NCBI RefSeq assembly: GCF_054482525.1
Contig: NZ_CM137006.1
Direction: 5' to 3' (one strand)
DNA length: 64,000 nucleotides
How positions within the stretch are numbered: the first letter of the stretch is position 1; each line of letters opens with the position of its first letter. Of the stretch, positions 3,691 to 64,000 are shown piece by piece. The notes beneath the pieces were generated by a model. The model did not search any database. It saw only the letters and a list, made by a program, of their open reading frames with translations, and was not told the DNA's origin. Both the position numbers and the translations under genes were made by a program.

Positions 3691-4812
3691 ATGTCAAAAG
3701 TCGCTCTCATCACCGGTGTAACCGGACAAGACGGTTCTTACCTGGCAGAGTTTCTGCTGGAAAAAGGTTACGAGGTGCATGGTATTAAGCGTCGTGCATC
3801 GTCATTCAACACCGAGCGCGTGGATCACATTTATCAGGATCCGCACACCTGCAACCCGAAATTCCATCTGCATTATGGCGACCTGAGTGATACCTCCAAC
3901 CTGACGCGCATTTTGCGTGAAGTACAGCCGGATGAAGTGTACAACCTGGGTGCAATGAGCCACGTTGCAGTTTCTTTTGAGTCACCGGAATATACCGCAG
4001 ACGTTGATGCGATGGGTACGCTGCGCCTGCTGGAGGCGATCCGCTTCCTCGGTCTGGAAAAGAAAACCCGTTTCTATCAGGCTTCCACCTCTGAACTGTA
4101 CGGTCTGGTGCAGGAAATTCCGCAGAAAGAAACCACGCCGTTCTATCCACGCTCTCCGTATGCGGTCGCCAAACTGTATGCCTACTGGATCACCGTTAAC
4201 TACCGCGAATCCTACGGCATGTATGCCTGTAACGGTATTCTCTTCAACCATGAATCCCCGCGCCGCGGCGAAACCTTCGTTACCCGCAAAATCACCCGCG
4301 CAATCGCCAACATCGCTCAGGGGCTGGAGTCGTGCCTGTACCTCGGCAATATGGATTCCCTGCGCGACTGGGGCCATGCCAAAGACTACGTAAAAATGCA
4401 GTGGATGATGCTGCAACAGGAACAGCCGGAAGATTTCGTTATCGCGACCGGCGTTCAGTACTCCGTGCGTCAGTTCGTGGAAATGGCGGCAGCACAGCTG
4501 GGTATCAAACTGCGCTTTGAAGGCACGGGCGTTGAAGAGAAGGGCATTGTGGTTTCCGTCACCGGGCATGACGCGCCAGGCGTTAAACCGGGCGATGTGA
4601 TTATCGCCGTTGATCCGCGCTACTTCCGTCCGGCTGAAGTTGAAACGCTGCTCGGTGACCCGACCAAAGCGCACGAAAAACTGGGCTGGAAACCGGAAAT
4701 CACCCTCAGAGAGATGGTGTCTGAAATGGTGGCTAATGACCTCGAAGCGGCGAAAAAACACTCTCTGCTGAAATCTCACGGCTACGACGTGGCGATCGCG
4801 CTGGAGTCATAA
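3691..4812 (+). CDS. gmd: GDP-mannose 4,6-dehydratase (colanic acid copy)
   Basis: 373 aa; N-terminal Rossmann motif [12 protein letters not shown]; SDR-type YxxxK; followed by fcl. Confidence 0.95.
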
Positions 4813-4814
4813 GC

Positions 4815-5780
4815 ATGAGTAAACAACGCATTTTTATTGCTGGCCATCGCGGGATGGTCGGTTCCGCCATCAGGCGGCAGCTCGAACAGCGCGGTGATGT
4901 AGAGCTGGTATTACGCACCCGCGATGAACTGAACCTGCTGGACAGCCGCGCCGTGCATGATTTCTTTGCCAGCGAACGTATTGACCAGGTCTATCTGGCG
5001 GCGGCGAAAGTGGGCGGCATTGTTGCCAACAACACCTATCCGGCGGATTTCATCTACCAGAACATGATGATTGAGAGCAACATCATTCACGCCGCGCATC
5101 AGAACGACGTGAACAAACTGCTGTTTCTCGGATCGTCCTGTATCTACCCGAAACTGGCAAAACAGCCGATGGCAGAAAGCGAGTTATTGCAGGGTACGCT
5201 GGAGCCGACCAACGAGCCTTACGCCATTGCCAAAATCGCCGGGATCAAACTGTGCGAATCTTACAACCGCCAGTACGGACGCGATTACCGCTCAGTCATG
5301 CCGACCAACCTGTATGGCCCGCATGACAACTTCCACCCGAGTAATTCGCATGTGATCCCTGCATTGCTGCGTCGCTTCCACGAGGCGACGGCACAGAATG
5401 CACCGGACGTGGTGGTATGGGGCAGCGGTACACCGATGCGTGAATTCCTGCACGTCGATGATATGGCGGCGGCGAGCATTCATGTCATGGAGCTGGCGCA
5501 TGAAGTCTGGCTGGAGAACACCCAGCCGATGCTGTCGCACATTAACGTCGGCACGGACGTTGACTGCACTATCCGCGAGCTGGCTCAAACCATCGCCAAA
5601 GTGGTGGGTTACAAAGGTCGGGTGGTTTTTGATGCCAGCAAACCGGATGGTACGCCGCGCAAACTGCTGGATGTGACGCGCCTGCATCAGCTTGGCTGGT
5701 ATCACGAAATCTCACTGGAAGCGGGGCTTGCCAGCACTTACCAGTGGTTCCTTCAGAATCAAGACCGCTTTCGGGGGTAA
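4815..5780 (+). CDS. fcl: GDP-L-fucose synthase (GDP-4-keto-6-deoxymannose epimerase/reductase)
   Basis: 321 aa; [10 protein letters not shown] Rossmann motif; immediately downstream of gmd. Confidence 0.95.
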
Positions 5781-8921: not shown

Positions 8922-9022
8922 CAGTTGAATAATCAACCGGATTAATTCTCCGGTAAATAACGACAAAAACAAAATTGGCCGTTTCGGTCAGGGCCAACTA
9001 TTGCCTGAAAAAGGGTAACGAC

Positions 9023-10393
9023 ATGAAAAAATTAACCTGCTTTAAAGTCTACGATATTCGCGGGAAATTAGGCGAAGAACTGAATGAAGATATTGCCTGG
9101 CGTATTGGTCGCGCCTATGGCGAATTTCTTAAACCGAAAACCATTGTTTTAGGCGGTGATGTCCGCCTCACCAGCGAAACCTTAAAACTGGCGCTGGCAA
9201 AAGGTTTACAGGATGCGGGCGTCGATGTGCTGGATATTGGCATGTCCGGCACCGAAGAGATCTATTTCGCCACGTTCCATCTCAGCGTGGATGGCGGCAT
9301 TGAAGTTACCGCCAGCCATAACCCGATGGATTACAACGGCATGAAGCTGGTGCGCGAAGGGGCTCGCCCGATCAGCGGCGATACCGGACTGCGCGACGTC
9401 CAGCGTCTGGCAGAAGCCAATGACTTCCCTCCTGTCGATGAAACCAAACGCGGTCGCTATCAGCAAATCAATCTGCGTGACGCTTACGTTGATCACCTGT
9501 TCGGTTATATCAACGTCAAAAACCTCACGCCGCTCAAGCTGGTGATCAACTCCGGGAACGGCGCGGCGGGGCCGGTGGTGGACGCCATTGAAGCCCGCTT
9601 TAAAGCCCTCGGCGCACCCGTGGAATTGATCAAAGTGCACAACACGCCGGACGGGAATTTCCCCAACGGTATTCCTAACCCGCTGCTGCCGGAATGTCGC
9701 GACGACACCCGCAATGCGGTCATCAAACACGGCGCGGATATGGGCATTGCCTTTGATGGCGATTTTGACCGCTGTTTCCTGTTTGACGAAAAAGGGCAGT
9801 TTATCGAGGGCTACTACATTGTTGGCCTGCTGGCAGAAGCGTTCCTCGAAAAAAATCCCGGCGCGAAGATCATCCACGATCCACGTCTCTCCTGGAACAC
9901 CGTTGATGTGGTGACTGCCGCAGGCGGCACCCCGGTAATGTCGAAAACCGGACACGCCTTTATTAAAGAACGTATGCGCAAGGAAGACGCCATCTACGGT
10001 GGCGAAATGAGCGCCCACCATTACTTCCGTGATTTCGCTTACTGCGACAGCGGCATGATCCCGTGGCTGCTGGTCGCCGAACTGGTGTGCCTGAAAGGGA
10101 AAACGCTGGGCGAACTGGTGCGCGACCGGATGGCAGCGTTTCCGGCAAGCGGTGAGATCAACAGCAAACTGGCGCACCCCGTTGAGGCGATTAATCGCGT
10201 CGAACAGCATTTTAGCCGTGAGGCGCTGGCGGTGGATCGCACCGATGGCATCAGCATGACCTTTGCCGACTGGCGCTTTAACCTGCGCTCCTCCAACACC
10301 GAACCGGTGGTGCGGTTGAATGTGGAATCGCGCGGCGATGTACCGCTGATGGAAGCGCGAACGCGAACTCTGCTGACGTTGCTGAACGAGTAA
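9023..10393 (+). CDS. cpsG: Phosphomannomutase (colanic acid copy)
   Basis: ORF 8975..10393; start taken at MKKLTCFK (456 aa); phosphohexomutase active-site TASHNP. Confidence 0.93.
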
Positions 10394-19838: not shown

Positions 19839-19877
19839 CAGTACGCTGGTAGCTGTTGAGCCAGGGGCGGTAGCGTG
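19839..19877 (+). promoter_or_regulatory. JUMPstart element with ops site (GGCGGTAGCGTG) for RfaH-dependent antitermination
   Basis: Sequence cagtacgctggtagctgttgagccaggggcggtagcgtg read directly; 39-bp JUMPstart consensus ending in the 12-bp ops motif, ~80 bp upstream of the first O-antigen gene. Confidence 0.85.
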
Positions 19878-26351: not shown

Positions 26352-27473
26352 ATGTGTAAGAAAGCTTTAATTACAGGAATTACCGGGCAAGATGGTTCCT
26401 ACTTGGCAGAATTTCTGCTTAAAAAAGGCTATGAGGTTCATGGAATAAAACGTCGATCTTCCTTGTTTAATACTGACCGTATTGATCATATATATCAAGA
26501 CCCACACCATCGTAATTTAAAATTACAACTTCATTATGGTGATTTAACAGATACTTCTAATTTGACTCGGATATTATCTGAAGTTCAACCTGATGAAGTT
26601 TATAATCTTGGCGCAATGAGTCACGTAGCTGTTTCCTTCGAATCCCCAGAATATACAGCTGATGTTGATGCTATAGGTACTTTACGATTATTGGAAGCTA
26701 TTCGTTTTTTGGGATTAGAAAAAAAAACCCGATTTTATCAGGCGTCAACCTCTGAATTGTATGGATTAGTTCAGGAAGTTCCACAAAAAGAGACAACGCC
26801 GTTCTATCCTCGTTCACCTTATGCCGTAGCTAAACTGTATGCATATTGGATCACTGTAAACTATCGTGAGTCTTATGGAATGTATGCATGTAACGGTATT
26901 TTGTTCAATCATGAATCCCCACGTCGTGGGGAAACGTTTGTAACACGTAAAATCACACGTGCTATAGCTAATATATCGCAGGGAATAGAAAAATGCTTAT
27001 ATCTTGGCAACATGGATTCTTTACGCGATTGGGGGCATGCGAAAGATTATGTTCGTATGCAATGGATGATGCTTCAACAAGACCAGCCAGAAGACTTTGT
27101 TATTGCCACCGGCAAACAAATATCTGTACGTGAATTTGTCCGTATGTCTGCTAAAGAAGTTGGACTTGAACTTGAGTTTTCCGGTACTGGTGTTGATGAG
27201 ATTGCATTTGTTGTAAATAAAACATCAGATTGCGCCGTTGGTGTTAATATTGGTGATGTTATTGTTCGCGTTGACCCTCGTTATTTTCGACCAGCAGAAG
27301 TTGAAACTCTTCTTGGTGATCCAACAAAAGCAAAAAATGTCTTGGGTTGGGAGCCAGAGATTACAGTTGAAGAAATGTGTGCAGAAATGGTGGCTAGTGA
27401 TTTAGAAAAAGCTAAACAGCATGCACTTCTTAAAAGCCATGGTTTTGACGTGGCAGTCTCTTTGGAGCGTTAA
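26352..27473 (+). CDS. gmd: GDP-mannose 4,6-dehydratase (O-antigen copy, low GC)
   Basis: 373 aa; protein highly similar to colanic acid Gmd (3691..4812) but with divergent, AT-richer codon usage. Confidence 0.93.
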
Positions 27474-27476
27474 AGT

Positions 27477-28442
27477 ATGACCAAGAAGCGAATTTTTGTG
27501 GCTGGACATCGTGGGATGGTTGGTTCTGCTATTTGTCGTCAATTATTAGCACGTAATGATGTTGAGTTAATTGTCAAAACTCACAAAGAACTCGATTTGA
27601 CAGTTCAAAAGGATGTTGAATGTTTTTTTGAGCAAGAGAGAATAGATCAGGTTTACCTTGCAGCAGCAAAAGTAGGAGGAATTCATGCTAATAACACTTT
27701 TCCAGCTGAATTTATTTATCAGAACCTTCTTATTGAAAGCAATATTATTCACTCATCTTACAAAGCGGGCATAAAGAAACTATTATTCTTAGGGTCAAGT
27801 TGTATCTATCCAAAGTTTGCAGAACAGCCAATGAAAGAATCTGCACTTTTGACGGGAACTCTTGAGCCTACTAATGAGCCTTATGCTATTTCCAAAATAG
27901 CAGGTATAAAGCTATGTGAATCTTATAATCGCCAATATGGATGTGATTATCGCAGTGTAATGCCTACTAACTTATATGGTATGAATGATAATTTTCATCC
28001 CAATAACTCACATGTAATTCCAGCGCTTATGCGGCGTTTTCATGAAGCAAAGGAACTTGGTTTAAATGAAGTGGTTGTCTGGGGAACGGGAACTCCAAAA
28101 CGCGAGTTTTTATATGTTGATGATATGGCCGCTGCATCAGTATATGTGATGGAGCTTGATGATGAAATTTATAAAAAAAATACTCAACCAATGTTATCTC
28201 ATATTAACGTAGGTACTGGTGTTGATTGTTCCATACGTGAAATGGCAGAAACAATGGCTTTAGTTGTTGGCTATGATGGAAAAATTGTTTTTGATATAAC
28301 AAAACCAGATGGTTCGCCTCGTAAACTTATGGATGTTACACGCCTTGAGAATTTGGGTTGGAAATATCGTTATAATTTAAAACAAGGACTAGAATTAACA
28401 TATAAATGGTTTATAAATAATCTTGACTCATTTAGGAGTTAA
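27477..28442 (+). CDS. fcl: GDP-L-fucose synthase (O-antigen copy)
   Basis: 321 aa; paralogue of 4815..5780 with the same motifs. Confidence 0.93.
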
Positions 28443-31151: not shown

Positions 31152-32522
31152 ATGAAAAAATTAACCTGCTTTAAAGCCTATGATATTCGCGGGAAATTAG
31201 GCGAAGAACTGAATGAAGATATTGCGTGGCGCATTGGTCGCGCCTATGGCGAATTTCTCAAACCGAAAACCATTGTGTTAGGCGGTGACGTCCGCCTCAC
31301 CAGCGAAACCTTAAAACTGGCGCTGGCGAGAGGTTTACAGGATGCGGGCGTCGATGTGCTGGATATCGGCATGTCCGGCACCGAAGAGATCTATTTCGCC
31401 ACGTTCCATCTCGGCGTGGATGGCGGCATTGAAGTTACCGCCAGCCATAATCCGATGGATTATAACGGCATGAAGCTGGTTCGCGAGGGGGCTCGCCCGA
31501 TCAGCGGAGATACCGGACTGCGCGACGTCCAGCGTCTGGCTGAAGCCAACGACTTTCCTCCCGTCGATGAAACCAAACGCGGTCGCTATCAGCAAATCAA
31601 CCTGCGTGACGCTTACGTTGATCACCTGTTCGGTTATATCAATGTCAAAAACCTCACGCCGCTCAAGCTGGTGATCAACTCCGGGAACGGCGCAGCGGGT
31701 CCGGTGGTGGACGCTATCGAAGCCCGCTTTAAAGCCCTCGGCGCACCTGTGGAATTGATCAAAGTGCACAACACGCCGGACGGCAATTTCCCCAACGGTA
31801 TTCCTAACCCGCTGCTGCCGGAATGTCGCGACGACACCCGCAATGCGGTCATTAAACACGGCGCGGATATGGGCATTGCCTTTGATGGCGATTTTGACCG
31901 CTGTTTCCTGTTTGACGAAAAAGGGCAGTTTATCGAGGGCTACTACATTGTCGGCCTGCTGGCAGAAGCGTTCCTCGAAAAAAATCCCGGCGCGAAGATC
32001 ATCCACGATCCACGTCTCTCCTGGAATACCGTTGATGTGGTGACCGCCGCGGGCGGCACACCGGTGATGTCGAAAACCGGACACGCCTTTATTAAAGAAC
32101 GTATGCGCAAGGAAGACGCCATCTACGGTGGCGAAATGAGCGCCCACCACTATTTCCGTGATTTCGCTTACTGCGACAGCGGCATGATCCCGTGGCTGCT
32201 GGTCGCCGAACTGGTGTGTCTGAAAGGAAAAACGCTGGGCGAACTGGTGCGCGACCGGATGGCAGCGTTTCCGGCAAGCGGTGAGATCAACAGCAAACTG
32301 GCGCAACCCGCTGAGGCGATTAATCGCGTCGAACAGCATTTTAGCCGTGAGGCGCTGGCGGTGGATCGCACCGATGGCATCAGCATGACCTTTGCCGACT
32401 GGCGCTTTAACCTGCGCTCCTCCAACACCGAACCGGTGGTGCGCCTGAATGTGGAATCGCGCGGTGATGTGCCGCTGATGGAAGAAAAGACAAAACTTAT
32501 CCTTGCGTTATTGAACAAGTAA
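31152..32522 (+). CDS. manB: Phosphomannomutase (O-antigen copy; mosaic, near-identical to cpsG over most of its length)
   Basis: 456 aa; spot comparisons of 60-bp blocks against 9023..10393 show 0-3 mismatches each; only the last ~40-50 bp diverge. Confidence 0.93.
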
Positions 32523-43895: not shown

Positions 43896-43930
43896 TAAAA
43901 AAGCCCCCGGAAGATGATCTTCCGGGGGCT
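43896..43930 (-). terminator. his operon attenuator (leader terminator hairpin)
   Basis: Minus-strand reading gives gcccccggaag-loop-cttccgggggc followed by a U-run, between hisL and hisG. Confidence 0.8.
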
Positions 43931-43993
43931 TACTCATGCGTTCATGCACCACTGGAAGATCTGAATGTCTTCCAGCACACATCGCCTGAAAGA

Positions 43994-44044
43994 CTAGTCA
44001 GGATGATGGTGATGATGGTGGTGTTTAAATTGAACGCGTGTCAT
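43994..44044 (-). CDS. hisL: his operon leader peptide (MTRVQFKHHHHHHHPD)
   Basis: Reverse complement read directly: atg aca cgc gtt caa ttt aaa then 7 consecutive His codons, cct gac tag. Confidence 0.95.
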   Translation of the reverse strand: MTRVQFKHHHHHHHPD

Positions 44045-44294
44045 AAAAGTCTCTGTGAATGTTTATTCAACTGATGTCTTTTAACCTAAACCACTTTCAC
44101 GTTAGAAAGCAAGGGCTTTTTTATATATTTTATGGCGATGGATTTGTTTAATGAATGAGCGGGGAAAGGAGGGGGCTAAGAGGACTGACCTCTAAGCTGA
44201 CGGCACCAAAAATAGCGAAGCCTGGATTTTTCGACTCACTGACAATATCTTGATCTACAAACTAATTAATAAATAGTTAATTAACGCCCATCAT

Positions 44295-44312
44295 TGTACA
44301 ATGAAATGTACA
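44295..44312 (+). promoter_or_regulatory. yefM-yoeB operator: tandem TGTACA palindromes overlapping the promoter
   Basis: tgtacaatgaaatgtaca immediately upstream of the RBS gaggag and the yefM ATG. Confidence 0.65.
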
Positions 44313-44327
44313 AAAGAGGAGATTAAC

Positions 44328-44579
44328 ATGCGTACAATTAGCTACAGCGAAGCGCGTCAGAATTTGTCGGCAACAATGATGAAAGCCGTTGATGATCATG
44401 CCCCGATCCTTATTACTCGTCAGAATGGAGAGGCTTGTGTTCTGATGTCACTCGAAGAATACAACTCCCTGGAGGAGACGGCTTATCTACTGCGTTCCCC
44501 CGCTAACGCCCGGAGATTGATGGACTCAATCGATAGCCTGAAATCTGGCAAAGGAACGGAAAAGGACATCATTGAGTGA
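44328..44579 (+). CDS. yefM: Type II antitoxin YefM
   Basis: ORF 44301..44579; start at [17 protein letters not shown] gives 83 aa; 4-bp overlap with yoeB. Confidence 0.93.
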
Positions 44580-44830
44580 AACTAATCTGGTCTGAGGAAT
44601 CATGGGATGATTATCTGTACTGGCAGGAAACAGATAAGCGAATTGTTAAAAAGATCAATGAACTTATCAAAGATACCCGCAGAACGCCATTTGAAGGTAA
44701 GGGGAAGCCAGAACCCCTGAAACATAATTTGTCAGGTTTCTGGTCCCGACGCATTACAGAGGAGCACCGTCTGGTATACGCGGTTACCGACGATTCACTG
44801 CTCATTGCAGCATGTCGTTATCATTATTGA
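44576..44830 (+). CDS. yoeB: Type II toxin YoeB (ribosome-dependent mRNA interferase)
   Basis: 84 aa; RelE/YoeB fold C-terminal ...RYHY. Confidence 0.93.
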
Positions 44831-44912
44831 ACAGATTCATTCATAGAATGAATTGTCAGTTTTGATACGCTAGCGTAGCCTTATAGATCTAAGGTGTATC
44901 AGGAGATAACGG

Positions 44913-45737
44913 ATGAAAAAGGTCGCAATTGTCGGGTTAGGGTGGTTAGGCATGCCGCTGGCGATGTCACTTTCAGCGCGAGGCTGGCAAGTCACCGGGA
45001 GTAAAACCACACAAGATGGTGTCGAAGCGGCCCGAATGAGTGGCATTGATAGCTATCTGCTTCGCATGGAGCCTGAGTTAGTTTGCGATTCTGACGATCT
45101 GGATGCCCTGATGGATGCCGATGCGCTGGTCATTACGCTTCCGGCACGTCGTAGCGGCCCCGGCGATGAGTTCTATTTACAAGCGGTACAAGAGTTAGTG
45201 GATAGCGCGCTGGCCCATCGTATTCCCCGCATTATTTTTACCAGCTCAACATCTGTCTATGGCGACGCGCAAGGCACGGTGAAAGAAACCACCCCGCGTA
45301 ATCCGGTAACCAACAGTGGACGAGTATTAGAAGAACTCGAAGACTGGCTGCACAATTTACCCGGTACTTCGGTCGATATTCTGCGTCTTGCGGGCCTGGT
45401 CGGACCGGGGCGTCATCCCGGACGCTTCTTTGCCGGAAAAACCGCGCCTGATGGTGAACATGGTGTTAATTTAGTCCATTTAGAAGATGTTATTGGCGCT
45501 ATCACCCTGTTGTTACAGGCACCTAAAGGCGGACACATCTATAATATATGTGCGCCAGCTCACCCTGCGCGTAATGTTTTCTATCCGCAGATGGCCCGTT
45601 TACTGGGGCTGGAACCTCCGCAGTTCACAAATAGTCTGGACAGCGGCAAAGGTAAGATTATTGATGGCAGTCGGATTTGTAATGAACTGGGATTTGAATA
45701 CCAGTATCCCGATCCGCTGGTAATGCCGCTGGAGTAA
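44913..45737 (+). CDS. yeeZ: NAD(P)-binding Rossmann-fold protein YeeZ
   Basis: 274 aa; N-terminal VAIVGLGWLG; synteny. Confidence 0.85.
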   Translation: MKKVAIVGLGWLGMPLAMSLSARGWQVTGSKTTQDGVEAARMSGIDSYLLRMEPELVCDSDDLDALMDADALVITLPARRSGPGDEFYLQAVQELVDSALAHRIPRIIFTSSTSVYGDAQGTVKETTPRNPVTNSGRVLEELEDWLHNLPGTSVDILRLAGLVGPGRHPGRFFAGKTAPDGEHGVNLVHLEDVIGAITLLLQAPKGGHIYNICAPAHPARNVFYPQMARLLGLEPPQFTNSLDSGKGKIIDGSRICNELGFEYQYPDPLVMPLE

Positions 45738-46712: not shown

Positions 46713-46798
46713 AGAAAAATTATTATGACAAGCCTCTCATTCTCTTGTCATTTCCCCCCCATTTAGGCACAATGCGCCGCTGTCAAAAAATGACTAAA

Positions 46799-46830
46799 AA
46801 CCGACGTTTAATTAGCGTCGGTTATTTTTT
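46799..46830 (+). terminator. Rho-independent terminator downstream of yeeY
   Basis: Hairpin aaccgacg...cgtcggtt followed by T6. Confidence 0.6.
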
Positions 46831-46978
46831 GCTTCAAACCAATCATTCATACCAAGAGGCCGGGCTTCGTACCGGATAGATATTTACTAAAAATCGACAG
46901 TTGTTGTCGCTGAGGAATCCAAAAAAATGGGGCAATTTTTTGCTTACGCGACGGTTATCACCGTAAAGGAGAATGACC

Positions 46979-48337
46979 ATGTCGCATAACGTTACTCCAA
47001 ACACCTCTCGCGTGGAATTGCGTAAAACGCTTACGTTAGTTCCGGTTGTAATGATGGGTCTTGCCTATATGCAGCCGATGACGCTGTTTGATACATTTGG
47101 TATCGTTTCAGGCCTCACGGATGGTCATGTGCCGACAGCCTATGCGTTCGCATTGATTGCGATCCTGTTTACGGCTCTGAGCTACGGGAAGCTGGTTCGC
47201 CGCTATCCTTCTGCTGGCTCTGCATACACTTACGCCCAGAAATCCATTAGCCCGACTGTCGGCTTTATGGTGGGTTGGTCTTCTCTGCTCGACTATCTGT
47301 TCGCGCCGATGATCAACATTCTACTGGCGAAAATCTATTTTGAAGCTCTGGTGCCTTCCATTCCATCGTGGATGTTTGTGGTGGCGCTGGTGGCCTTTAT
47401 GACCGCCTTTAACCTGCGTAGTCTGAAATCCGTAGCGAACTTCAACACTGTAATCGTCGTGTTGCAGGTAGTGCTGATCGCGGTGATTCTGGGCATGGTT
47501 GTTTATGGCGTATTTGAAGGCGAAGGCGCGGGTACGCTGGCGAGCACTCGTCCGTTCTGGTCTGGCGATGCGCATGTTATCCCGATGATTACCGGGGCGA
47601 CAATCCTGTGCTTCTCCTTTACCGGCTTTGACGGCATCAGCAACCTGTCGGAAGAAACCAAAGATGCAGAGCGCGTGATCCCGCGTGCGATTTTCCTGAC
47701 CGCGCTGATCGGCGGCATGATCTTCATCTTTGCAACTTACTTCCTGCAGCTGTACTTCCCGGATATCTCTCGCTTTAAAGATCCGGATGCGTCACAGCCT
47801 GAAATCATGCTGTATGTTGCGGGTAAAGCGTTCCAGGTTGGCGCGCTGATCTTCTCCACCATTACCGTACTGGCGTCCGGTATGGCGGCGCACGCAGGCG
47901 TAGCGCGTCTGATGTACGTAATGGGTCGTGACGGCGTATTCCCGAAAAGCTTCTTCGGTTATGTACACCCGAAATGGCGTACTCCGGCGATGAACATCAT
48001 CCTGGTTGGCGCGATTGCCTTGCTGGCAATCAACTTCGACCTGGTAATGGCTACGGCGCTGATTAACTTTGGTGCGCTGGTGGCGTTCACCTTTGTTAAC
48101 CTGTCGGTTATCTCGCAGTTCTGGATCCGTGAGAAGCGTAATAAGACGCTGAAAGATCACTTCCAGTATCTGTTCCTGCCGATGTGTGGTGCGCTGACTG
48201 TAGGTGCGCTGTGGGTTAATCTGGAAGAAAGCTCAATGGTTCTGGGTCTGATCTGGGCTGCTATTGGTCTGATTTACCTGGCTTGCGTCACCAAGAGCTT
48301 CCGTAACCCGGTTCCGCAGTACGAAGACGTTGCATAA
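46979..48337 (+). CDS. plaP: Putrescine importer PlaP (APC-family amino acid/polyamine permease)
   Basis: ORF 46973..48337; start at MSHNVTPN, 452 aa; 12-TM permease. Confidence 0.9.
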
Positions 48338-48380
48338 TCTTACAAGCCGGATGACATAATCATCCGGTAAATCTCAAAAA

Positions 48381-48407
48381 GCCGGAGTTTGTCGCTCCGG
48401 TTTTTTT
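48381..48407. terminator. Bidirectional terminator between convergent plaP and sbcB
   Basis: Hairpin gccggag...ctccgg flanked by A5 upstream and T7 downstream; a second inverted repeat ccggatga/tcatccgg lies just before it. Confidence 0.7.
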
Positions 48408-48410
48408 GTT

Positions 48411-49838
48411 TCAGACGATCTCTTCCGCGTACTGCCAAAGTGCTTTTAACAGCGCCACTTTCTCTTTGTCATCGGCATATTGTTGTGCCAGCATCTGCAA
48501 TTCATCTGCATAGCCCTGCAAAAACTCTGGCGTGAAGACCTGGCGGCGGTGCTCCAGCCAGCGTTGCTGCTCGGCATAATCCAGCGTCCCCGGGAAGTTG
48601 CGCGCCCGATAATTGAACAACAGCTTTTCAATCCGTTTATCAACAAAAGTGATATCCAGTGCCGGTAAATTACGCGGCTCGGTTTCCAGCACAATTTTCA
48701 TTGCTGCACGATCGGCGTCACTGAAAAAGCCATTATAAAGCTGTGCATCCACGTTATCTGAAGGCGTAAACGGTTCGGCTTCCGCGAATATCGCCACCAC
48801 TTTTTCACGCACTTGCGGATTTTCACGCAGAATTTTCAGGTTATCGAGGCAATGCTGACGATTAATTCCCAGTCGGTCGGCATCTTCCGGGCGTAGCGTA
48901 TTCGCCTGGGCCAGCACCGGACATTTATTGATATGCACCAGTTTAACCGGAACGGCGGCGTTATCGCCAAGATCGGCTTTTGCGGTATATAGACGCTCGC
49001 GCAATGTGTCGCTATCCAGTTCCAGTAATGGCGAAATGTCTCCTGCCAAATCCACCATAATTACGGCATTGCGATTTTCAGGATGCCACGCCAGCGGTGC
49101 CACCCAGCTTGTATTGCCGCGCCATGCCCCAAACATTCCGGAAACGTGAACCAGGGGTTTCATCTGCGGAACATCAATCAACGCCATCAGTTTGTGTTTA
49201 TTACGATGGGTAAAGAGATAATCAAACAGGCGTGGCTGACGCGTTTTTACCAGTTTTGCCATCGCAATAGTGGCGTACACATCAGCCATCGCATCGTGGG
49301 CGTTGCTATGTTCAATACCATTCGCTTTGGTTAAATGCTCAAGGCGAAAGCTCGGTAGACCGTCATCATTTTCAGGCCAGTTTATTCCTTCCGGGCGCAG
49401 GGCATAGCAGGCACGCATAACATCCAGTAAATCCCAGCGCGAGTTATCATGCTGCCAGCTCCAGGCGTAAGGATCGTAGAAATTACGATAAAAAACGTTG
49501 CGTGTGACTTCGTCGTCGAAACGCACATTGTTGTAGCCCAGAATACAGGTCTTCGGTACGGTAAAAAGCGAGTGAATACGGGCGGCAAATGCGGCTTCGT
49601 TTTCTCCTTTCGCCCGAGCTTCCTGCGGGGTAATACCGGTAATTAATACTGCTCCAGGCTGGGGTAAATAGTCATCCGCGGGCTTGCAGTAAAAGACTTC
49701 GGGTTCGCCGATGACATTGAATTCGTCATCGGTGCGAATGGCTGCGAACTGTGCAGGGCGATCTAACGCGGGGTGCGTGCCAAAGGTTTCGTAATCGTGA
49801 AACAAAAAGGTAGATTGTTGCTTACCGTCATTCATCAT
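48411..49838 (-). CDS. sbcB: Exodeoxyribonuclease I
   Basis: ORF 48411..49886; start at MMNDGKQQSTFLFHDYETFG (DEDDh exonuclease motif), 475 aa. Confidence 0.94.
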   Translation of the reverse strand: MMNDGKQQSTFLFHDYETFGTHPALDRPAQFAAIRTDDEFNVIGEPEVFYCKPADDYLPQPGAVLITGITPQEARAKGENEAAFAARIHSLFTVPKTCILGYNNVRFDDEVTRNVFYRNFYDPYAWSWQHDNSRWDLLDVMRACYALRPEGINWPENDDGLPSFRLEHLTKANGIEHSNAHDAMADVYATIAMAKLVKTRQPRLFDYLFTHRNKHKLMALIDVPQMKPLVHVSGMFGAWRGNTSWVAPLAWHPENRNAVIMVDLAGDISPLLELDSDTLRERLYTAKADLGDNAAVPVKLVHINKCPVLAQANTLRPEDADRLGINRQHCLDNLKILRENPQVREKVVAIFAEAEPFTPSDNVDAQLYNGFFSDADRAAMKIVLETEPRNLPALDITFVDKRIEKLLFNYRARNFPGTLDYAEQQRWLEHRRQVFTPEFLQGYADELQMLAQQYADDKEKVALLKALWQYAEEIV

Positions 49839-51331: not shown

Positions 51332-51802
51332 ATGAACTACGAGATTAAGCAGGAAGATAAACGTACCGTTGCAGGTTTCCATCTCGTTGGCCCGTGGGAA
51401 CAGACGGTAAAGAAAGGCTTTGAGCAGTTGATGATGTGGGTAGATAGCAAAAATATTGTGCCGAAGGAGTGGGTTGCTGTCTATTACGACAATCCAGATG
51501 AAACACCCGCCGAAAAATTACGCTGCGACACCGTCGTGACGGTACCGAATAACTTTACACTCCCCGAAAGTGAGGGCGTCATTCTGACAGAAATTTCAGG
51601 TGGTCAGTATGCGGTGGCGGTGGCTCGTGTAGTCGGTGATGATTTTGCTAAACCCTGGTATCAGTTCTTTAATAGCCTCTTGCAGGACAGTGCTTATGAA
51701 ATGTTGCCAAAGCCCTGCTTCGAGGTTTACTTGAACAATGGCGCAGAAGAGGGGTACTGGGATATCGAAATGTATGTTGCGGTGCAGCCAAAACATCACT
51801 AA
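51332..51802 (+). CDS. sbmC: DNA gyrase inhibitor SbmC (GyrI)
   Basis: 156 aa; GyrI-like small-molecule-binding domain; preceded by LexA box. Confidence 0.93.
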
Positions 51803-53231: not shown

Positions 53232-53561
53232 ATGGAAACTACCAAGCCTTCATTCCAGGACGTACTGGAATTTGTTCGTCTGTTCCGTCGTAAGAACAAA
53301 CTGCAACGTGAAATTCAGGACGTTGAGAAAAAGATCCGTGACAACCAGAAGCGCGTCCTGCTGCTGGACAACCTGAGCGATTACATCAAGCCGGGGATGA
53401 GCGTTGAAGCAATCCAGGGCATCATCGCCAGCATGAAAGGTGACTATGAAGATCGTGTTGACGATTACATCATCAAAAATGCCGAGCTCTCCAAAGAACG
53501 CCGCGATATCTCCAAAAAGCTGAAAGCTATGGGCGAAATGAAAAACGGCGAAGCGAAGTAA
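53232..53561 (+). CDS. yeeX: DUF496 protein YeeX
   Basis: ORF 53166..53561; start at [11 protein letters not shown], 109 aa. Confidence 0.85.
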
Positions 53562-53661
53562 TTCCTGTTTTATTCAATGAGGGTTGCCCGGCAACCCTCA
53601 TTGCTCATTGATTCTTTTCTGTGTATCACCGTCATCATTCCCATCTGATAACCTATTGAAA

Positions 53662-53934
53662 TTAGCGACAGCCTTCTTCTGTATGCAGCAAGGCAAAAAG
53701 TTCTGCAACTCCATTGTTATTAACCGCACTGGTTACTAACACATTGTGCGCTCCAGCTTCCCGTAACCAACTTTTCACCAAAGATATTTGTTCCATGCTG
53801 GCTAAATCTGCTTTGGTGACTACTCCAATAACAGGGCGATTCATTGACGAGGTAAAGCCTGGCGAAAAAGGGGACCACGGTGTGTCCGCATTAAGCACCA
53901 GGGCGATAATGTCTGCTTCGCAGGCGCTGACCAA
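53662..53934 (-). pseudogene. Fragment of an EutP/PduV-family GTPase (C-terminal part only)
   Basis: 90 aa ORF with G4-like TKADL and [13 protein letters not shown] segments but no P-loop; flanked by short ORFs without recognisable domains. Confidence 0.45.
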
Positions 53935-54429
53935 CAGAGCACTGTAGAGGCTGCGGTTTTATCTGTGAGGACTGGCAGCAAGATTTCCAGCCTCTTGACG
54001 GTGGGCCTGTGCAATCGTTATCAGATGCGTATAGCGATTATTCAGTGCTGCTATTGATAGCAGCTGAAAGCGAGATATCCGTACCAGAATGGCTCCCTCA
54101 TTCTGAGGGAACGACGGTAATTGTGATTGCAGAACACAATGCCCGTTTGCTGACTGGTCCGGCTGGTGGGGCTGTGGCATTGATCCATTATCTGAATGAA
54201 ATCTGTCATTCCAGAGAAACCGCTGTCAATGACGCATTTTGTCGGACGTTAACACGAGGAAGTCTGGCTATTCCGCAATGCCATCTTCTTTCGTAATGGA
54301 TTGAGAATGCTGGATTTTTAATTATATTACGCGCAGTATTAATCGCGTAAATGTTTTGCGGTCAGCAACGGTGGGGGATCCATTGTTCTGTTCAATGAAT
54401 ACCATCATACAATTGAATCAGGAGTCGGT

Positions 54430-54975
54430 ATGATGATTTTGGTGACGGGGGGCGCACGGAGCGGGAAAAGTCGCCACGCAGAGGCGCTTATTGGGGACTC
54501 TTCACAGGTTCTGTATATCGCCACCTCGCAAATCCTTGATGATGAGATGGCTGCACGGATAGAACATCATCGGCAAGGCCGCCCGGCGCACTGGCGCACG
54601 GTGGAGCGCTGGCAACATCTTGATGAATTAATTCATGCAGACATTAACCCGAATGAGGCTGTGTTGCTGGAATGCGTTACCACAATGGTGACTAATCTGT
54701 TGTTTGATTATGGCGGCGATAAAGACCCTGATGAATGGGATTATCAGGCGATGGAACAGGCGATTAATGCTGAGATTCAGTCGTTGATTGCTGCCTGCCA
54801 ACGTTGCCCCGCAAAGGTTGTATTAGTGACTAACGAAGTGGGAATGGGGATTGTGCCGGAGAGTCGTCTGGCACGACATTTTCGTGATATTGCCGGGCGG
54901 GTAAATCAGCAGTTGGCCGCTGCGGCAAATGAAGTATGGCTGGTGGTTTCGGGTATTGGAGTAAAAATCAAATGA
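54430..54975 (+). CDS. cobU: Adenosylcobinamide kinase / adenosylcobinamide-phosphate guanylyltransferase
   Basis: 181 aa; P-loop [12 protein letters not shown]. Confidence 0.94.
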
Positions 54976-57858: not shown

Positions 57859-57934
57859 TGGCTCCTCTGACTGGACTCGAACCAGTGACATACGGATTAA
57901 CAGTCCGCCGTTCTACCGACTGAACTACAGAGGA
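57859..57934 (-). tRNA. asnV: tRNA-Asn (GUU)
   Basis: 76-nt sequence whose reverse complement is TCCTCTGTAGTTCAGTCGGTAGAACGGCGGACTGTTAATCCGTATGTCACTGGTTCGAGTCCAGTCAGAGGAGCCA; cloverleaf with GTT anticodon and CCA end. Confidence 0.95.
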
Positions 57935-60267: not shown

Positions 60268-60343
60268 TGGCTCCTCTGACTGGACTCGAACCAGTGACAT
60301 ACGGATTAACAGTCCGCCGTTCTACCGACTGAACTACAGAGGA
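60268..60343 (-). tRNA. asnU: tRNA-Asn (GUU)
   Basis: Identical 76-nt sequence to 57859..57934. Confidence 0.95.
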
Positions 60344-60503
60344 ATCGCTGTTGAGGCACATCTTAACGGCGAAAAATCTTTTGTCAAACCCGATTTTTAA
60401 ATTTCCCAACTGTTTGCCGTTTCTATCAACAGTTTGTTGCATTTGCAGACAATTTGTTGGCGAAAATCTTTGCAGCTTTGCTGATTCTCCCTCATTATTT
60501 GAA

Positions 60504-62091: not shown

Positions 62092-62167
62092 TCCTCTGTA
62101 GTTCAGTCGGTAGAACGGCGGACTGTTAATCCGTATGTCACTGGTTCGAGTCCAGTCAGAGGAGCCA
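62092..62167 (+). tRNA. asnW: tRNA-Asn (GUU)
   Basis: Third identical copy, opposite orientation to the other two. Confidence 0.95.
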
Positions 62168-62328: not shown

Positions 62329-63591
62329 ATGTCTTTAAACGATTCTAAAATCCGCAAGTTAAAACCCTCTTCCCGTCCGGTAAAACTCTCCGACTCTCAC
62401 GGTCTGTATCTGCTCGTCAATCCGGGCGGTTCACGCATCTGGTATCTCAAATATCGTTTCAACGGAAAAGAATCCAGAGTCAGTCTTGGCGCATACCCGC
62501 TTGTCTCACTGGCAGAAGCCAGGCAACAGCGCGACGGTATCCGTAAGTTACTGGCGCAGAATATCAACCCGGCGCAGCAGCGCATGGCGGAGGAAGCGGC
62601 CTGCTCCCCTGAAAAGTGCTTTAAGGCAGTGGCGCTGGCCTGGCACAAAACCAACAAAAAATGGTCGGCTGATTATGCCGCCCGTATTCTCGCCAGTATG
62701 GAAAACCATATCTTCCCGGCGATTGGTCATCTGCCCGTTGCCACTCTTAAAACGCAGGATTTCACTGCTTTGTTGCGGGTTATCGAGGATAAAGGCTTTC
62801 TGGAAGTCGCGTCCCGAACCCGGCAGCAACTCAGCAACATCATGCGCTATGCCGTTCAGCAGGGGCTTACCGAAAGCAATCCGGCGCAGCATCTGGATGG
62901 CGTTGTCGCCTCACCCGTAAAGAACCACTACCCCGCGTTACTGCTGGAGCGGTTGCCCGAACTGCTTGGCCGCATCGGTGACTATCAGCAGGGCCGGGAG
63001 TTAACACGGCTGGCGGTGGTGCTGACGTTGCACCTGTTTATCCGTTCCAGCGAACTGCGTTTCGCCCGCTGGAGCGAGATCGATTTCAGGCACAAAATCT
63101 GGACCATCCCCGCCACCCGCGAGGCAATCGACAAAGTACGGTTTTCGGGGCGTGGCGCAAAAATACGTACCCCGCATATCGTGCCGCTCTCCCGCCAGGC
63201 GATTGCCATTCTGAAACAGATACAGGAGCTTTCCGGCCATCTGGATCTGGTGTTTCCCGGTGATCATAACTCGTACAAGCCAATGAGTGAAAACACCACC
63301 AACCGGGCGCTACGCCTGATGGGGTATGATACGAAAACTGAAATCTGCGGGCATGGACTCAGGGCGATGGCCTGTAGCGCCCTGGTGGAATCGGAGCTGT
63401 GGTCACGCGATACGGTGGAGCGGCAAATGAGCCACCAGGAGCGTAACAGCGTGCGGGCAGCCTATGTGCATAAAGCGGAGCATCTGGAGGCCAGAAAGGC
63501 CATGATGCAGTGGTGGTCGGATTATCTGGATGTGTGCCGCGAGGGGTATGTTGCGCCGTACATTTATGCCCGGCAGCATAAGGCAGCCTGA
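62329..63591 (+). CDS. P4-type tyrosine integrase (phage integrase family) adjacent to tRNA-Asn
   Basis: ORF 62227..63591; start at MSLNDSKIRKLKP (420 aa); N-terminal P4-integrase-like domain; C-terminal catalytic region with R...HxxR...Y context (HGLRAMACS..., RAAYVH). Confidence 0.9.
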   Translation: MSLNDSKIRKLKPSSRPVKLSDSHGLYLLVNPGGSRIWYLKYRFNGKESRVSLGAYPLVSLAEARQQRDGIRKLLAQNINPAQQRMAEEAACSPEKCFKAVALAWHKTNKKWSADYAARILASMENHIFPAIGHLPVATLKTQDFTALLRVIEDKGFLEVASRTRQQLSNIMRYAVQQGLTESNPAQHLDGVVASPVKNHYPALLLERLPELLGRIGDYQQGRELTRLAVVLTLHLFIRSSELRFARWSEIDFRHKIWTIPATREAIDKVRFSGRGAKIRTPHIVPLSRQAIAILKQIQELSGHLDLVFPGDHNSYKPMSENTTNRALRLMGYDTKTEICGHGLRAMACSALVESELWSRDTVERQMSHQERNSVRAAYVHKAEHLEARKAMMQWWSDYLDVCREGYVAPYIYARQHKAA

Positions 63592-64000
63592 ATCAGAAAT
63601 AGCGGAAATCATTAAAAATGTAAAAGCAGATCCTGATTGACCGGGATCTGCTTATTGTATTGAGAAGTATTACCATTTTTCTGTTATTATCAATCGGAAA
63701 GTATCTAAAAATATTTGTCCCCAAATAATTTTGGTGAAAACCAATCAATAAACCATTTATCAATAGGTAAGTACCGGAAATTATTCCAGTAGAATATTTT
63801 CAGGCGATTGCCTATTAATAAATACATTATTGATAGATAAGTGCCTTCTGTGATTTGCCCGCAAATCACAGAAGATGAAAACCTATCAATACGGGATATT
63901 TTCACGGAAATACCAATTAATACTCCAGAATATCTCCTGACCATATACTCTGAAACCTGTAAGAACTGCATCAGATATTGAGAGACCATATAGATATAAG

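Follow-up and report, generated by a model that had tools for sequence, protein, structure and literature searches.

Does the 64-kb window analysed here (64,000 nucleotides, the whole stretch of DNA) carry at positions 44295-44830 an intact and self-regulating yefM-yoeB toxin-antitoxin (TA) operon, and is this the only TA or defence-like locus that the window holds? An earlier note, made from the sequence alone, had proposed both. Based on the evidence below, the locus is almost certainly the canonical chromosomal E. coli yefM-yoeB type II TA operon, in the allele of the PCN033 lineage. Annotated gene names (PGAP), protein families (Pfam) and identity to solved structures (PDB) all agree that it is a known chromosomal TA system, and no sequence feature contrary to this reading was found.

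Genomic context of the locus

The window is a segment of an E. coli chromosome that is collinear with PCN033 throughout and 99.98% identical to it, with eight differing positions in 64 kb (3123, 4448, 14483, 22293, 23480, 39401, 45305 and 60398), none within the module. Gene names were transferred from the annotation of this near-identical genome. The 701 bases around the locus were 100% identical to PCN033, where PGAP annotates yefM and yoeB, and had matches in 5416 of 5426 complete E. coli genomes. The change at 60398 is a stop codon in a small DUF5951 ORF that overlaps a tRNA-Asn gene; with its non-standard start codon, this ORF seems a questionable gene call in any case.

The window starts with the colanic acid genes from wcaD to wcaM, an O11-type O-antigen cluster and the genes gnd, ugd and wzzB, followed by the his operon on the minus strand, hisL (43994-44044) and yefM-yoeB. 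Next come yeeZ, yeeY, yoeI, plaP, sbcB, dacD, sbmC, yeeA and tmaR, then a eutP-like pseudogene, a hypothetical gene, cobUST, ldtA, nac, cbl and yeeO, and the window ends with three tRNA-Asn genes and a tyrosine integrase gene (62329-63591). According to the annotations, the arrangement of hisL, yefM-yoeB and yeeZ is common to the window, PCN033 and K-12 MC4100. The genes yeeD and yeeE, which lie between plaP and sbcB on the K-12 map, seem to be absent here (48337-48411).

Several other features of the window were recorded along the way. Genes of the GDP-mannose/GDP-fucose pathway occur twice, once in the colanic acid cluster and once in the O11-type O-antigen cluster: copies of gmd and fcl lie at 3691-5780 and 26352-28442, and the two phosphomannomutase copies (9023-10355 and 31152-32484) are 96.6% identical over 1333 bp. 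At the other end, the three tRNA-Asn genes (57862-57934 and 60271-60343 on the minus strand, 62092-62164 on the plus strand) fall within 4.3 kb, have near-identical flanks of ~100 bp and are interleaved with nac, cbl and yeeO. The integrase, which adjoins the third of them, is of the P4 type with Arm-DNA-bind_3, Phage_int_M and Phage_integrase domains. It forms the edge of a genomic island that in PCN033 includes, past the window, an RHS core protein and a TPR protein.

Two intact, overlapping genes

The locus consists of two small, adjacent and co-oriented genes, with the antitoxin gene first. On the plus strand, yefM (44328-44579) begins with ATG and encodes an antitoxin and autorepressor of 83 aa (ORF listing, PF02604, 2A6Q_A and PGAP), while yoeB (44576-44830, plus strand) begins with GTG and encodes a ribosome-dependent mRNA endonuclease toxin and corepressor of 84 aa (ORF listing, PF06769 and 2A6Q_E). 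Direct reading of 43900-45200 placed the TGA stop codons at 44577-44579 and 44828-44830, and the tetranucleotide GTGA is common to the yefM stop and the yoeB start codon (GTG, 44576-44578), so the proposed 4-bp overlap is real. A frameshift or premature stop in yoeB had been named as the result that would overturn the claim of two full-length genes; re-translation revealed neither frameshifts nor premature or internal stops in either gene, and both frames are open throughout.

Two further signals at the genes were examined. Terminator-like matches on the minus strand inside yefM and yoeB were judged to be chance, because they are antisense and lie within coding sequence. Directly after the yoeB stop, at 44826-44863, there is an AT-rich inverted repeat, ATTCATTC-ATA-GAATGAAT (outer pairs), followed by TTTT, which the terminator scan skipped because it has too few G-C pairs. 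Genomes that carry the yefM-yoeB cassette and genomes that lack it both retain this repeat, which may be a weak terminator or a regulatory site of yeeZ.

Near-identity of both proteins to the crystallised complex

YefM matched the Phd/YefM antitoxin family (PF02604) with 97 bits (E = 5.5e-28; cut-off, 29.8 bits) and YoeB matched the YoeB toxin family (PF06769) with 146 bits (E = 2.8e-43; cut-off, 27 bits), with a weak secondary match of YoeB to ParE_toxin. Compared with the crystallised proteins, YefM was identical at 82 of 83 residues (2A6Q_A), the lone difference being the conservative change E22D, and YoeB was identical at all 84 residues (2A6Q_E, the crystallised E. coli toxin). Entries with the same YoeB sequence are 2A6Q, 2A6R and 2A6S and, for the toxin bound to the ribosome, 4V8X, 6NY6, 6OTR, 6OXA and 6OXI.

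Residues with assigned functions were retained in both proteins. In the translated YoeB, E46, R59, E63, R65, H83 and Y84 are all in place, which settles the check on catalytic residues that the earlier note had called for. In the YoeB-70S structure, Glu46 acts as general base, Arg65 stabilises the transition state and His83 acts as general acid; Tyr84 is a further catalytic residue, and Arg59 and Glu63 contact the mRNA (PMC3814384). The translated YefM keeps R10 and R31, the basic-patch arginines described as essential for operator binding (Bailey and Hayes 2009, as summarised in PMC4803016).

Promoter and operator

Upstream of yefM, the elements of the promoter (pyy) could be read directly and assigned from published mapping. 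The -35 hexamer TAGTTA (44274-44279, plus strand) is identical to that of a K-12 fragment and was assigned following PMC7730913, and the -10 hexamer TACAAT (44297-44302, plus strand; PMC7730913) falls entirely within a perfect 14-bp palindrome, TCATTGTACAATGA (44291-44304). This long (L) palindrome, identical to that of K-12, is the primary binding site of YefM and YefM-YoeB, as located for YefM by DNase I footprinting (PMC1802561). A first TGTACA (44295-44300) forms its centre, and a second (44307-44312), the core of the short (S) repeat, follows at 12 bp centre to centre. Primer extension in vivo mapped the first base of the yefM ATG to +21 (Kedzierska et al. 2007, PMC1802561), and therefore +1 is G 44308, within the second TGTACA. 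The Shine-Dalgarno sequence GAGGAG (44316-44321, plus strand) ends 6 nt 5' of the ATG, in agreement with the 6-bp distance reported for the yefM ribosome binding site (PMC1802561).

The suggestion that tandem TGTACA repeats overlap the promoter is thus confirmed, with the L palindrome over the -10 box and the S repeat over the start site as in the published mapping. The boundaries proposed for the locus hold in part: its end, 44830, coincides with the end of the yoeB stop codon, but its start, 44295, where the first TGTACA begins, is preceded by the beginnings of the palindrome (44291) and of the -35 hexamer (44274). Across the whole 64-kb window, TGTACA was observed nine times compared with ~17 expected from base composition, and the pair is not a chance feature, because it is the sole instance of two such sites at 12-bp spacing.

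A generic sigma-70 scan, which demanded at least 4 of 6 consensus matches per hexamer, reported no plus-strand promoter upstream of yefM. The promoter was missed because its -35 hexamer, TAGTTA, matches the consensus at just 3 of 6 positions. This is a limit of the scan, as the promoter itself is experimentally established (PMC1802561, PMC7730913), and its hexamers, 17-bp spacer and weak -35 have been described (PMC7730913).

In K-12, a 99-bp fragment has full promoter activity, which YefM represses ~5.5-fold and YefM-YoeB reduces to background, with the S repeat required for full repression by the complex (PMC1802561). Over the 77 genomic bases of this fragment, the window differs by three substitutions: T to C at 44288, C to A at 44306 (position -2) in the spacer between the TGTACA cores, and G to A at 44325, past the ribosome binding site but before the ATG. 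The hexamers, the L palindrome, the S core and the ribosome binding site are free of substitutions, and the spacing is as in K-12. Gapped alignment revealed a 1-bp indel further upstream of this promoter-leader segment; an ungapped comparison with K-12 is valid from 44248 on, the ~240 differences that it gives upstream of 44234 being a spurious effect of the indel. Among seven further E. coli alleles drawn from across the identity range, neither the TGTACA cores nor the -10 box varied (7 of 7), while the flanks did, in some strains at one -35 position too. With all published operator and promoter elements identical here, the sequence supports the proposed autoregulation by the YefM-YoeB complex.

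Comparison with known systems

The closest relative is K-12 yefM-yoeB (b2017/b4539, PDB 2A6Q), and the alignment to it proposed as a check agreed at every level. The operon occupies the same site between hisL and yeeZ, and its genes follow each other in the same order and overlap by the same 4 bp; YoeB is identical (84 of 84 residues) and YefM differs only by E22D (82 of 83 identical); and the -35 and -10 hexamers, the start site, the L palindrome, the S core, their 12-bp spacing and the ribosome binding site are identical. The two copies differ in five synonymous codon changes, the substitutions at 44288, 44306 and 44325 and the 1-bp upstream indel. Five of the six coding differences are therefore synonymous, a pattern consistent with purifying selection.

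More distantly, the axe-txe system of the Enterococcus faecium plasmid pRUM combines a homologous Phd/YefM-type antitoxin with a YoeB/Txe-type toxin, and its operator likewise contains paired TGTACA repeats (L and S) and a -10 TACAAT (PMC7730913). The layout differs: in axe-txe, the spacer that separates -35 from -10 contains L, and S partly covers the -10, whereas here L covers the -10 and S covers the start. The placement of L in the spacer and the partial overlap of S with the -10 explain the weaker repression of axe-txe. YoeB also has in common with toxins of the RelE/ParE superfamily (RelBE, YafQ-DinJ and HigBA) the microbial RNase fold and ribosome-dependent cleavage of mRNA in the A site. 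Compared with these toxins, the Glu46/His83 acid-base pair is YoeB's own, and its partner is an antitoxin of the Phd/YefM fold as opposed to the ribbon-helix-helix antitoxins RelB and DinJ.

Proposed mode of action

All sequence elements of the reference system were identified and are intact in the window. We infer binding, repression, toxicity and Lon dependence from the near-identical K-12 system, which suggests the following sequence of events. A single sigma-70 promoter (TAGTTA, 17-bp spacer, TACAAT) would drive transcription from G 44308, and the 20-nt leader with its GAGGAG ribosome binding site would cause yefM to be translated first, with translation of yoeB probably coupled to it via the GTGA overlap. 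By analogy with 2A6Q, a YefM dimer should bind one YoeB through one of its C-terminal tails, yielding a YefM2-YoeB heterotrimer in which the toxin is inactive. At the operator, the YefM dimer would occupy first the L palindrome at the -10 box and next the S TGTACA at the start site. YoeB is expected to act as corepressor and to raise affinity ~100-fold, as in the systems studied (PMC1802561, PMC7730913, PMC4803016), and hence the YefM-YoeB complex would shut off its own promoter by sterically excluding RNA polymerase.

Release of the toxin would depend on degradation of YefM, which is Lon dependent in K-12 (PMC7167474, PMC4803016). Free YoeB would then enter the ribosomal A site and probably cut mRNA after the second codon position (PMC3814384), with Glu46 as the likely general base and His83 as the likely general acid. 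Activation of yefM-yoeB in K-12 at 42 °C had no measurable effect on fitness (PMC7167474), and the physiological role of the chromosomal operon is contested in the literature.

Distribution and cassette boundaries

The 551-bp module was present in 4216 of 5426 complete E. coli genomes (78%), while its flanks were found in nearly all. It was absent from the remaining ~22%, including O157:H7 and BL21(DE3), and alignment to the empty sites of these two strains defined a presence/absence cassette with the promoter and both genes (~44183-44835). Homology to the empty sites ends after 44182 and restarts at ~44832-44836, so that the cassette is ~650 bp long and sharply bounded; it takes in ~145 bp ahead of yefM and 5 bp after the yoeB stop. 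In its place, BL21(DE3) and O157:H7 carry ~210 bp of unrelated sequence that appears to contain a REP-like element (GCCGGATGCGGCGTGAATGCCTTATC...), as judged from the REP consensus. Uneven distribution and horizontal transfer have been described for chromosomal TA modules of E. coli (Fiedoruk et al. 2015 and Ramisetty and Santhosh 2016, as cited in PMC7167474).

Only 34 of the 4216 modules were at least 99% identical to the allele in the window. In the genome of an enterotoxigenic strain, ETEC L6_E562 (L012, 1549-3330), an IS2 element splits yoeB and leaves yefM intact, an example of toxin-first decay of the module. Because such a disrupted copy exists, the intactness of the module in the window is worth recording.

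Search for other toxin-antitoxin or defence loci

The claim that yefM-yoeB is the sole TA or defence-like locus in the window held as far as it was tested, using the PCN033 annotation, PADLOC on 20 proteins and Rfam. The PCN033 annotation gives a name to every gene of the window and includes no other toxin, antitoxin or defence component. PADLOC identified no defence system among the 20 proteins from yefM to the window end; for the colanic acid, O-antigen and his genes that precede yefM, the unambiguous annotation was relied on. At Rfam gathering thresholds, no type I or type III antitoxin RNA was detected in the window, and matches were limited to the His leader, the three tRNAs, an algC RNA motif upstream of cpsG (8969-9018), a JUMPstart element upstream of the O-antigen genes (19839-19877) and the STnc240 sRNA upstream of yoeI/plaP (46758-46832). 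None of the intergenic gaps in the window is long enough for a hidden type II pair, and neither the hypothetical gene at 53961-54296 nor the ORF at 63705-63989 had a Pfam or PADLOC match.

Three PADLOC matches were considered and rejected as defence systems. Exonuclease I, encoded by sbcB (48411-49838, minus strand), matched RTasSbcB, a model of an accessory protein of defence reverse transcriptases (E = 2e-53), and DEDDh, but sbcB is a housekeeping gene, and as there is no reverse transcriptase nearby, the match to RTasSbcB reflects shared ancestry and not defence. The matches of plaP to a generic amino-acid transporter model and of cbl, weakly, to helix-turn-helix and CARF3 models likewise concern conserved housekeeping genes that lack defence partners in their neighbourhood. 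The product of sbmC (51332-51802) is a GyrI-like gyrase inhibitor and only loosely adjoins the TA or defence category; the same is true of sbcB and of the tRNA-Asn integrase, and none of the three is more than a loose neighbour. The cargo of the P4-type integrase island sits beyond position 64000, outside the window.

Between tmaR and cobU (53561-54430), the window retains just the eutP-like pseudogene and a hypothetical ORF of 111 aa. The CP4-44 prophage, which occupies this interval in K-12 with the cbtA-cbeA toxin-antitoxin pair, is absent here. The corresponding stretch of K-12 would thus presumably include a second TA locus.

Alternative readings of the locus

Abortive infection by phage is among the roles proposed for chromosomal TA systems (reviewed in PMC4803016), and the module, as an accessory cassette missing from ~22% of E. 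coli genomes, would suit such a role. It is nonetheless unlikely that anti-phage defence, as opposed to stress response or selfish addiction, is its main role. YefM and YoeB did not match any PADLOC defence model at E ≤ 0.01, the cassette is outside any defence island, with the his operon and yeeZ/yeeY as neighbours, and the literature on E. coli yefM-yoeB cited here reports no phage phenotype.

The differences from K-12 raise the possibility, equally improbable in our estimate, that the PCN033-lineage allele is regulated unlike its K-12 counterpart, in that the C-to-A change at -2, the G-to-A change at 44325 and E22D together alter the balance of antitoxin to toxin or how strongly the operon represses itself. 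A stronger version, that these same changes weaken repression, translation or neutralisation so far as to leave a module that is present but functionally altered or silent, is less probable still. Both A 44306 and A 44325, as well as D22 of YefM, are unique to the window among the eight alleles compared, and the low number of genomes with at least 99% identity over the module would also fit such an alteration. Nevertheless, the exchange of E for D is conservative, and it does not touch the arginines (R10 and R31) that the summary in PMC4803016 gives as essential for DNA binding. The sequence between the cores is diverse in functional homologues, in which the 6-bp spacing is conserved (PMC1802561), and that spacing is kept here. 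Furthermore, the frames of both genes are intact, the toxin is unchanged and an unneutralised toxin would not be tolerated. Most likely, E22D and the two single-base changes near the operator and the ribosome binding site are neutral in an otherwise canonical operon.

Finally, there is practically no chance that YefM is a longer, 92-aa product, even though a mechanical ORF listing gives 44301-44579 as the longest yefM ORF, because its ATG at 44301, inside the operator, precedes the transcription start at 44308 mapped by primer extension (PMC1802561); moreover, overexpressed yefM with the upstream ATG still yielded a product beginning at +21 (PMC1802561), the GAGGAG 6 nt ahead of ATG 44328 fits the 83-aa form, and that form is used by PGAP and by the crystallised protein.

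Significance

This copy of yefM-yoeB is already known in every respect tested and is essentially the reference sequence of one of the best-characterised type II TA systems, whose promoter has been mapped and operator footprinted and for which both crystal and ribosome-bound structures are available. The value of the analysis is chiefly correct annotation, and its useful outcome is a negative one, namely that the rest of the window is without a hidden TA or defence system. The boundaries of the cassette and its absence from ~22% of genomes are mildly useful for comparative work. If its regulation did differ from that of K-12, the PCN033-lineage allele would be a natural variant for studying how the set-point of yefM-yoeB is tuned.
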